Of a stretch of DNA of 64,000 bases, positions 16,239 through 40,243 are shown piece after piece. Position 1 is the first letter of the stretch. Each line of letters opens with the position of its first letter. The notes under the pieces were generated by a model. It saw only the letters and a list, made by a program, of their open reading frames with translations. It had not been told where the DNA came from and made no database searches. The translations under genes were made by a program, and so were the position numbers. Source of the stretch: Thermoplasmata archaeon (GTDB taxonomy: Archaea > Thermoplasmatota > Thermoplasmata > GCA-020350865); NCBI GenBank assembly GCA_020348445.1, contig CP070751.1, forward strand, positions 628,321 through 692,320, in the 5' to 3' direction.

Positions 16239-16312
16239 GGGCCTATAGCTTAGACTGGTGGAGCGCCCGGCTGATAACCGGGAGGTCGAGAGTTCAAATC
16301 TCTCTAGGCCCA
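16239..16312 (+). tRNA. tRNA-Ile(GAT), intronless
   Basis: GGGCCTA/TAGGCCC acceptor stem, CCGG-CT-GAT-AA-CCGG anticodon arm, GAGAG-TTCAAAT-CTCTC T arm. Confidence 0.96.
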
Positions 16313-16337
16313 CTTACCTTTTATATTAAATTGATTC

Positions 16338-16622
16338 GTGGGCCTATTGATGTTCGAGTTATGCTAGAGATCGCTAAGTCTTAAGCTCGAACATCTCTAG
16401 GCCATAAATTAAGGATGGTGTTCTGAGCATCTCTAGGCCTCTGGTTATCAATTCAATCAAATTAATACGTGGGCCTATTGACGCTCAGGTTATGCTAGAG
16501 GTTGCTATTTCTTAAACCTGAGCATCTCTAGGCCCACAAGAATTAAGAATGGTGTGCTGAGCATCTCTAGGCCCCCAAGAATTAAGAATGGCGTGCTGAG
16601 CATCTCTAGGCCCTTGGTTATC
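16338..16622 (+). repeat. Array of two palindromic cassettes and three 36-39 nt units, each ending in the tRNA-Ile 3' end (CATCTCTAGGCC)
   Basis: CATCTCTAGGCC occurs five times; cassettes at 16338-16403 and 16469-16537; both modules end in TGGTTATC. Confidence 0.9.
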
Positions 16623-16660: not shown

Positions 16661-16873
16661 GGGGGAGCAGATATATAATAGGGACAGCCGAAAAAGCATA
16701 ACAACACTACTTTCAGAGAGGCAGTGTGAGATAGCCTGCCAAACTGTTTAGGGGCGGAGCTACAAGGATTATCGAATATCTATTCGAGTTGTTAAATCAC
16801 TGCTCTCATGTTGAGTACATAGGGTTTCTGATTTAAATCAGAAAGCGAATTCGTGCTAAAAGGAGGTTAAAAT

Positions 16874-17062
16874 ATGTCAATATTAGCTCCAGCAAAGATG
16901 AGGCTATGGATTGAACTGTGGAAGGAGGAAGTGATGGCCTCGATTCCAAAAGAAGAATTACAGCAAAAATTTCAAGGTAAGCAGATTAAAAAAGGACGAA
17001 TGCCCACTAAGCCACCCGAGAAGATCCAAGCTAAACTCGAGGGAGGAGGCCAAGTTTTGTAG
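16874..17062 (+). CDS. 62-aa Lys/Gln-rich small protein, unknown function
   Basis: Perfect AGGAGGT RBS 7 nt before ATG; sits just upstream of kamA-family gene. Confidence 0.55.
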   Translation: MSILAPAKMRLWIELWKEEVMASIPKEELQQKFQGKQIKKGRMPTKPPEKIQAKLEGGGQVL

Positions 17063-39800: not shown

Positions 39801-39903
39801 GCACCCCGTCCAGATTTATTTTGATCTATCGTCTTAGTGTTCGAGTTATAATTTTTCATCAATTGTTTCTTAAGCTCGAACACTAGACGGGAGCACGAAT
39901 CAA
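39801..39903 (-). repeat. Palindromic cassette of the same family as the tRNA-Ile array, carrying the tRNA-Glu 3' end
   Basis: TAGTGTTCGAG (39835-39845)/CTCGAACACTA (39875-39885) arms, GACGGGAGCAC (39886-39896), GAATCAA. Confidence 0.85.
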
Positions 39904-40081: not shown

Positions 40082-40243
40082 GTCGCATATTACTTCAGAT
40101 CAAACATGCGACTAAGTGGCGGCTATGCCGCCACGGTAGGACACATTTGCGAATGCCGCGCATCTGAACTAAGCAAATGTGCGATTAAGTGGTGCGAGCA
40201 TTGCGAGCACCACGAAAGGTGCAAAATGCGCCAGCATTTTGCA
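40082..40243. ncRNA. Candidate structured RNA: five consecutive hairpins with complementary loops
   Basis: Perfect stems of 7, 8, 9, 7 and 10 bp; loop TTCAGAT complements loop ATCTGAA. Confidence 0.45.

Follow-up and report, generated by a model that had tools for sequence, protein, structure and literature searches.

The window analyzed here is a 64,000-nt stretch of a Thermoplasmata archaeon genome. It carries, on its plus strand, a tRNA-Ile(GAU) gene at 16239-16312/13, the only tRNA gene of the window that ARAGORN and the Rfam tRNA model (70.7 bits) detected. The discriminator A of this tRNA lies at 16312 and a trailing C at 16313. The last bases of the gene, together with one trailer base (16305-16313, plus strand; TAGGCCCAC), form the 5' arm of a hairpin that we call hairpin A. 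Its loop is an AT-rich spacer of 24 nt (16314-16337, plus strand) that has a T-run and a TATA-like center and ends in TTGATTC, and an inverted copy of the tRNA-Ile end (16338-16346, plus strand; GTGGGCCTA) serves as its 3' arm; a TT linker follows and extends to 16348. Because the GT of GTGGGCCTA pairs with the discriminator and the first trailer base, this segment is a true inverted copy of the 3' end and not merely a copy of the 5' acceptor strand. The hairpin A region (16296-16348) folds at −15.3 kcal/mol, with a z score of −4.3.

A second hairpin, hairpin B, occupies 16349-16395 (plus strand), with arms of 10 bp (16349-16358 and 16386-16395) around a 27-nt loop (16359-16385) that bears the family-conserved ends GTTAT...TCTTAAGC. 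This hairpin scores 49.3 bits (E = 4e-9) against the covariance model R1 described below, and the cassette to which it belongs folds with a z score of −5.3. Behind it lies a decayed direct copy of the tRNA-Ile end (TC TAGGCC A; 16396-16404, plus strand, with TCTAGGCC at 16396-16403). The inverted copy of unit 1 has two possible partners: it can form the 9 bp of hairpin A with the end of the tRNA itself, or it can pair with the direct copy that follows hairpin B. A partial repeat, P1 (16405-16439, plus strand; repeat family D1), terminates in a copy of the tRNA-Ile end (..GAGCATCTCTAGGCC) and leads into a second spacer, which by our reading of the sequence is 29 nt long and ends in AATAC (16440-16468, plus strand). 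Unit 2 (16469-16537, plus strand) has the same inverted copy, GTGGGCCTA, at 16469-16477, and an intact direct copy, TAGGCCCAC, at 16529-16537; its hairpin B consists of arms at 16480-16489 and 16517-16526 around a loop at 16490-16516 (plus strand; 41 bits and E = 8e-7 with R1). Cassette 2 folds at −37.3 kcal/mol (z = −8.0), and none of 200 shuffled sequences folded as well as cassette 1 or cassette 2. Two more partial repeats, P2 and P3 (37 and 39 nt; 16538-16613, plus strand), end at 16574 and 16613, both in CTGAGCATCTCTAGGCCC. The three partial repeats (35 to 39 nt), which the original prediction does not mention, are absent from the rest of the genome. A full unit at tRNA-Ile thus opens with an AT-rich spacer of 24 to 29 nt and continues with an inverted copy, a hairpin of 47 nt (27 of them in the loop), and a direct copy. 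There is no open reading frame (ORF) of 80 codons or more in the cassette region.

The original prediction for this DNA had described two palindromic cassettes behind tRNA-Ile, and on rereading the sequence we found all of its coordinates and strings to be as given. It had claimed three compensatory pair changes between the arms of the two cassettes; these are present (T-A to C-G, G-C to A-T, and A-T to G-C), together with one uncompensated change that leaves a C.A mismatch at arm position 3. It was also correct that both cores are 27 nt long and share the start TTATGCTAGAG, and the first 11 bases of the two loops are identical. The view that an acceptor-like stem closes each cassette holds for cassette 2, in which the stem is a perfect 9 bp, but not for cassette 1, in which decay of the closing copy to TAGGCCA leaves 6 bp. 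The hairpin of about 65 nt that had been taken for the whole unit proved too small, since the 24-nt spacer belongs to the unit as well, and the acceptor-like closure, on which stress had been laid, gives way to the pairing of the tRNA end with its inverted copy across the spacer, which is the best-kept pairing of all.

The window holds a second unit on its minus strand. A tRNA-Glu(UUC) gene at approximately 40069-39921 (minus strand), which by eye appears to be interrupted twice by introns, once behind the anticodon loop and once within the T loop, was missed by both ARAGORN and the Rfam tRNA model. Behind it, at 39919-39821 (minus strand), are a 23-nt spacer, the inverted copy GTGCTCCCGTC, a hairpin B and a decayed direct copy. 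In this hairpin B, the loop is reversed with respect to the tRNA; the unit matches R1 with 64.5 bits (E = 3e-13) at window positions 39833-39887. The recurrence of the same design at tRNA-Glu, which had been proposed from the window, is therefore real, and it extends to more than 20 other tRNA genes.

We also observed a different hairpin family on the 5' side of tRNA genes, at approximately 40100-40140 of the window (minus strand) and at about ten tRNA genes of the source genome, hereafter G000 (for example, at 368700, 2568447, 3004400, and 4789720). Its layout is a copy of the first bases of the tRNA, a hairpin of the form CCGTGG-stem-loop-CCAC, and an inverted copy.

The family hairpin was first found by a mechanical scan of the whole assembly, a 5.16-Mb draft in which contigs are joined by runs of 100 N, and 34 of its copies were used to build covariance model R1. 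Searching the genome and its relatives with the model, as the original prediction had proposed, yielded 62 copies in G000 and 25 to 48 copies in each of four other genomes of the genus (G001 to G004), for a total of about 200 copies over five species. In 146 other genomes of the class, representing 65 other genera, R1 found no copies. Because the same layout occurs in five independent assemblies, the cassettes are not an assembly artifact. No Rfam family corresponded to the tRNA-Ile cassettes or the tRNA-Glu unit, and when the Rfam tRNA model (RF00005) was applied with permissive filters and E values up to 10, tRNA-Ile alone matched and the cassettes did not. C/D box, H/ACA, K-turn, and bulge-helix-bulge intron motifs were considered by eye and rejected. 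A search of metagenome contigs anchored on the PmbA/TldD gene, and exact-pattern scans of metagenome and genome collections, gave no matches in collections that may lack records close to the source genome. Our literature search found no published description of the family. The claim of an element family tailored to each tRNA end stands: these are gene-less double-hairpin repeats of about 100 bp in the tRNA 3' flanks of one archaeal genus, and they are apparently undescribed.

The association with tRNA genes is close. With tRNAs called by Rfam and by intron-aware ARAGORN, at least 38 of the 62 copies in G000 lie no more than 450 nt 3' of a detected tRNA gene and bear the end of that very tRNA; several further copies adjoin tRNA-end-like sequence where no tRNA was called. 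The canonical unit consists of the tRNA end X, the spacer, the inverted copy X', a pyrimidine-rich linker of 2 to 4 nt, hairpin B, and a direct copy of X. We compared 64 canonical units drawn from all five genomes. Exact complementarity between X and X' extends over 8 to 13 nt (mean, 10), and 53 of the units have a spacer of 23 or 24 nt. For spacers of 24 nt (n = 28), the consensus is TTtaaTTTTATaTTaATTT.AT.C, TTTT included. Models of a hairpin-capped break or a palindromic spacer were rejected because the spacer is not palindromic, and upstream of native tRNA genes we saw no clear TATA position that would bear on the idea of the spacer as a promoter.

The tailoring can be followed base by base. 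At tRNA-Pro, the inverted copy spans the encoded CCA, and at three orthologous tRNAs, the species in which the first trailer base has changed from C to T show the corresponding change from G to A in X'. The direct copy behind hairpin B matches its own tRNA over 11 to 16 nt, which take in the discriminator and the 3' strands of both T stem and acceptor; identity ends at the border between T loop and T stem, and the arm inside is a generic, T-loop-like CTCRAACAC common to different tRNAs. The closing direct copy has a mean identity of 0.73, versus 0.56 in shuffled controls, and is perfect in 5 of 64 units. The acceptor-like closure is the weakest part of the unit, and hairpins A and B are the strongest. 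Loop interiors were no more complementary or identical to the host tRNA than to other tRNAs. Likeness between units correlated only weakly with likeness between tRNA ends in G000 (r = 0.34, p ~0.009) and was nonsignificant in three other genomes.

Hairpin B combines a stem of almost any sequence (9 to 11 bp) with a loop of 27 to 29 nt in which the ends, GTTAT...TCTTAAGC, and a central ACATCAATT motif are conserved across species. The stem covariation that had been predicted from two cassettes is strong. In 111 copies from the four congeners, 93.8% of stem pairs are standard, and 267 stem cells are changed on both sides, versus 69 ± 10 in shuffles; the signal is gone once the partner is slid by even one column. 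Very few of the pairs are G.U. Mismatches are asymmetric on the GTTAT strand, with 49 A.C versus 15 G.T (nominal p = 2e-5, from copies that are not independent). This excess means that the complementary strand folds better, and such strand-asymmetric folding may reflect selection on the complementary strand or a mutation bias.

Units stand in a preferred orientation to the tRNA, with approximately 64 in the sense direction and approximately 5 flipped, so that more than 90% keep it. An orientation switch had been proposed for tRNA-Ile, where nothing in the sequence indicated inversion. In the family as a whole, about 5 of about 70 units, the tRNA-Glu unit among them, have a hairpin B loop that runs opposite to the tRNA and spacer, and these flipped copies still score high with R1. 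These numbers point to rare DNA inversion rather than a switch. Together, the orientation bias and the asymmetry between A.C and G.T mismatches suggest that one particular strand or transcript matters.

The basic design is elaborated in several ways. Some units have tandem double B hairpins, and units can be arranged in arrays of up to six. In some units, the tRNA-Ile locus of G004 being one example, a three-helix form is found in which an acceptor-like outer stem encloses an arbitrary-sequence hairpin A and a hairpin B. About 15 dispersed copies in G000 have hairpins A and B and conserved flanks but no tRNA. Several tRNA genes (G000:C1:2568447, 3004400, and 4127488) are followed by hairpin A only, that is, by the tRNA end, a 23-nt spacer, and the inverted copy; in these flanks, a different conserved tail, ..TTAAATTGWTGGAGATT, takes the place of hairpin B. 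Elsewhere in the same assembly, approximately 22 tRNA genes are packed into 3 kb (G000:C1:4640571-4643566) without any hairpin unit, and this may be a foreign array, of viral or mobile-element origin, or a contaminant contig.

How the family has evolved can be judged at the tRNA-Ile locus, where the neighboring PmbA/TldD gene is 30 to 43% identical between the five species at four-fold degenerate sites, a level at which neutral DNA is saturated. The orthologous locus has two units and three partial repeats in G000. G003 and G004 also have two units each, one of which is decayed in G003 and one of which bears an extra hairpin in G004; G002 has no unit there. Across the family, identity to the best orthologous unit averages 78%, compared with a median of about 65% for nonorthologous units. 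In only 13 of 48 cases was the ortholog closer than every other unit, and the data are therefore compatible both with vertical descent and with exchange between tRNAs. At tRNA-Asp, the units of G000 and G001 share 89% identity, compared with no more than 67% to units at other tRNAs in other genomes. Despite the saturation of four-fold sites, then, the family consensus and some locus-specific arms and loops have been kept between species. A consensus that is kept while individual loci gain, lose, and decay units fits an active repeat family or a functional RNA with rapid birth and death, and purifying selection for function fits the cross-species conservation as well as a young active repeat does.

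Two other features of this neighborhood were noted. An intergenic block at window positions 16690-16870 (plus strand), upstream of a small ORF with its ATG at 16875, is strongly conserved at the orthologous loci in G002, G003, and G004, although synonymous sites in the neighboring gene are saturated. Rfam gave no match to this block, which may represent a leader or a noncoding RNA. In G001, approximately 2 kb of AT-rich DNA with a 235-codon ORF lies between the PmbA/TldD gene and tRNA-Ile (G001:C1:284737-288242).

Our search for an enzyme that might mobilize the units covered their surroundings as well as the known transposase and recombinase families. When ORFs within 2.5 kb of 40 unit loci were clustered, no protein family was common to three or more loci. 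Genes for Y1 (IS200-type) transposases occur in all five genomes, with five PF01797 matches in G000, and none of them is near units or flanked by them. The resident IS200-like element, a 661-bp repeat, was rejected as a source, its end hairpins being unrelated to hairpins A and B. In G000, which is 81% complete, no intact tyrosine recombinase was detected, only fragments beside two other tRNA genes, and no tyrosine recombinase in the congeners is linked to units. The recombinase-driven, invertible cassette of the original prediction thus finds neither a recombinase nor any other recurrent protein gene adjoining the units, and the co-occurring tyrosine recombinases that it anticipated are few and unlinked to them. 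Separately, we noticed an adjacent pair of Y1-transposase-like genes (G000:C1:4214534-4215446), divergently arranged in G000 and kept in at least four of the five genomes (G000 to G003), which might be domesticated or RAYT-like.

We tentatively favor, at a little under an even chance, the reading that the units are a nonautonomous, DNA-level palindromic repeat that colonizes tRNA 3' flanks and is re-templated from the end of the neighboring tRNA. We favor it because the stems are almost purely Watson-Crick, because loops are flipped, and because units are decayed, partial, or locally duplicated; the differing unit counts at orthologous loci, the dispersed copies that have no tRNA, and the restriction to one genus argue in the same direction. 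Counting against it are the failure to find a mobilizing enzyme and the re-templating step, which we only infer. The chief rival has the units as small RNA genes or as by-products of processed tRNA transcripts, in which a tRNA-like minihelix, with a copy of the acceptor stem closing hairpin B, would be released by RNase P and RNase Z and a protein or a second RNA would be the partner of the conserved loop. Processing directed by the copied 3' end has been proposed for the tRNA-linked repeats (TLRs) of Escherichia coli. On our analysis this rival is somewhat unlikely, yet several observations speak for it: each unit terminates in a copy of the tRNA 3' end, as the TLRs do (18 to 19 bp; PMC8144298), cassette 2 offers a perfect 9-bp acceptor-like stem followed by a discriminator A, some units adopt the three-helix form, the loop ends and the central ACATCAATT are conserved across species in which neutral sites are saturated, and more than 90% of units keep their orientation to the tRNA. 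The RNase P/Z minihelix is weakened, however, by a closing copy that is perfect in only 5 of 64 units. The near absence of G.U pairs, the mismatches that favor folding of the opposite strand, and the high model scores of flipped copies are likewise difficult to reconcile with a functional transcript, as are the many decayed or partial units and the loops, which have no complementarity to the host tRNA. The T-run in the spacer between tRNA and unit (TTTT in the 24-nt consensus) would, we expect, also tend to terminate archaeal transcription.

Two further explanations give the tRNA gene itself a larger part. The units could be DNA or RNA structures selected by the host in the service of the tRNA gene, as a terminator, an insulator, or a control on 3'-end folding and maturation in which the inverted copy and the 5' acceptor strand would be rival partners of the tRNA 3' end. 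The pairing of tRNA end and inverted copy is the best kept of all, shows compensatory changes between species, and spans a loop fixed at 23 to 24 nt, and several tRNA genes have hairpin A alone, all of which would suit such a signal. A gene-specific signal would not be expected to occur in arrays of up to six or far from any tRNA, though, nor to be missing from some orthologous tRNAs (tRNA-Ile in G002) and from the rest of the class, and we regard this explanation as improbable. The remaining possibility is that the units are footprints or miniature derivatives of tRNA-integrating elements, with the direct copies as attL/attR-type duplications and the hairpins as recombinase sites, and that a tyrosine or serine recombinase could invert or excise some cassettes. 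T-loop-class integrases cross over in the T-loop region of the tRNA, and the duplicated segment here begins with the T-stem 3' strand and extends through the 3' end, a T-loop-like arm lying just inside it; integrase gene fragments adjoin two other tRNA genes in G000, and a few loops are inverted. Against this, the "element" between the repeats would be only about 85 bp, no intact tyrosine recombinase was found in the 81% complete G000 and none is unit-linked in the congeners, and about 15 copies are dispersed without a tRNA. An inverted copy tailored at more than 20 different tRNAs and a rigid 24-nt spacer are not predicted by integration of this type, to which we give very little credence.

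The module has three parts. Hairpin A comprises the last 9 to 11 bases of the tRNA, an AT-rich spacer of 23 to 24 nt, and the inverted copy; hairpin B, with its covarying stem of 9 to 11 bp and its loop of 27 to 29 nt, follows, and then comes the direct copy, which repeats the final 12 to 16 bases of the tRNA. Under the repeat reading that we favor, we postulate that this module behaves as a selfish or near-neutral nonautonomous element. Unequal recombination or slippage between direct copies could multiply it locally, giving rise to arrays and partial units such as those at tRNA-Ile. New tRNA genes might be reached by way of the T-loop-like 3' arm of hairpin B or through an enzyme that recognizes single-stranded DNA hairpins. 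Once in place, the arms would take their sequence anew from the tRNA end beside them, through template switching within one strand of the hairpin (quasi-palindrome correction), a process during which selection would hold the tRNA copy unchanged.

It is possible, although we think it rather doubtful, that the family represents something undescribed in any domain of life, which would be either a new class of self-tailoring element that copies the end of its target in both directions, through a single-stranded DNA hairpin reaction or heteroduplex repair, or an RNA gene that mimics the tRNA 3' end. Transfer RNA genes are classic landing sites of mobile DNA. If the tailoring is a copying reaction, it would give small elements a novel means of targeting essential genes harmlessly; if the units are RNAs, they would constitute a new family of tRNA-end mimics. 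On either reading, the units affect tRNA annotation and genome assembly in these uncultured archaea.

Several known systems share part of this anatomy. REP/BIME-RAYT systems and hairpin-ended derivatives of IS200/IS605 share with the units a short, noncoding hairpin form, copy numbers in the tens, frequent arrays, and stems that covary. At the left end of IS608, the target is followed by a linker and a complementary "guide" just 5' of a hairpin; the layout of target, linker, complement, and hairpin in our units resembles this arrangement, and in both, one strand folds better. However, the units have no conserved GTAG-type head and flank no Y1 gene, and their complementary segment is 9 to 13 nt long and tailored to the tRNA, whereas that of IS200/IS605 is a fixed 4 to 5 nt. 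Integron attC sites are likewise imperfect palindromes (about 60 to 140 nt) with conserved ends, a variable center, and a strand-specific fold. The units, in contrast, have no integrase or cassette ORFs and are tied to tRNA ends, and their loop ends, GTTATRM and TCTTAAGC, do not match the attC core sites (RYYYAAC and GTTRRRY). Duplications of tRNA att sites and miniature cis-mobilizable derivatives resemble the units in that the 3' part of a tRNA is directly duplicated and the gene left intact, but the units have about 85 bp of gene-free DNA between the copies, an additional inverted copy, and no linked integrase. They also differ from MITEs, since their ends (the start of the spacer and the 3' arm of hairpin B) are not inverted repeats of each other and no autonomous relative was found.

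To our knowledge, the only described repeats that are built from a tRNA's own end are the TLRs of E. coli, which are unexplained and which reportedly go back to work by Egan and Landy in 1978 and by Rudd in 1999. The likeness lies in the arrangement: immediately behind a tRNA (or rRNA) gene come tandem units, numbering one to five in E. coli and one to six in the archaeal genus, each of which closes by repeating, in direct orientation, the 3' end of the gene that precedes it. The E. coli TLRs number 22 at ten loci, and their 18 to 19 bp are identical to the end of the upstream gene (PMC8144298, Stenum et al. 2021). Three of them are transcribed and bind Hfq and CsrA, and their function is otherwise largely unknown (PMC8144298). 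The copied segment in the archaeal units is shorter than in these bacterial ones (11 to 16 nt versus 18 to 19 bp) and is often decayed, being perfect in 5 of 64 units; by comparison of descriptions, PMC8144298 mentions no inverted copy, rigid spacer, or shared double hairpin. Given taxa so far apart, homology between the two is unlikely. The anatomy of the archaeal family is the sharper of the two: the tRNA end is copied in both direct and inverted orientation, the 24-nt spacer is rigid, and two hairpins are conserved. The family's approximately 200 copies in five species make the hypotheses set out above testable.
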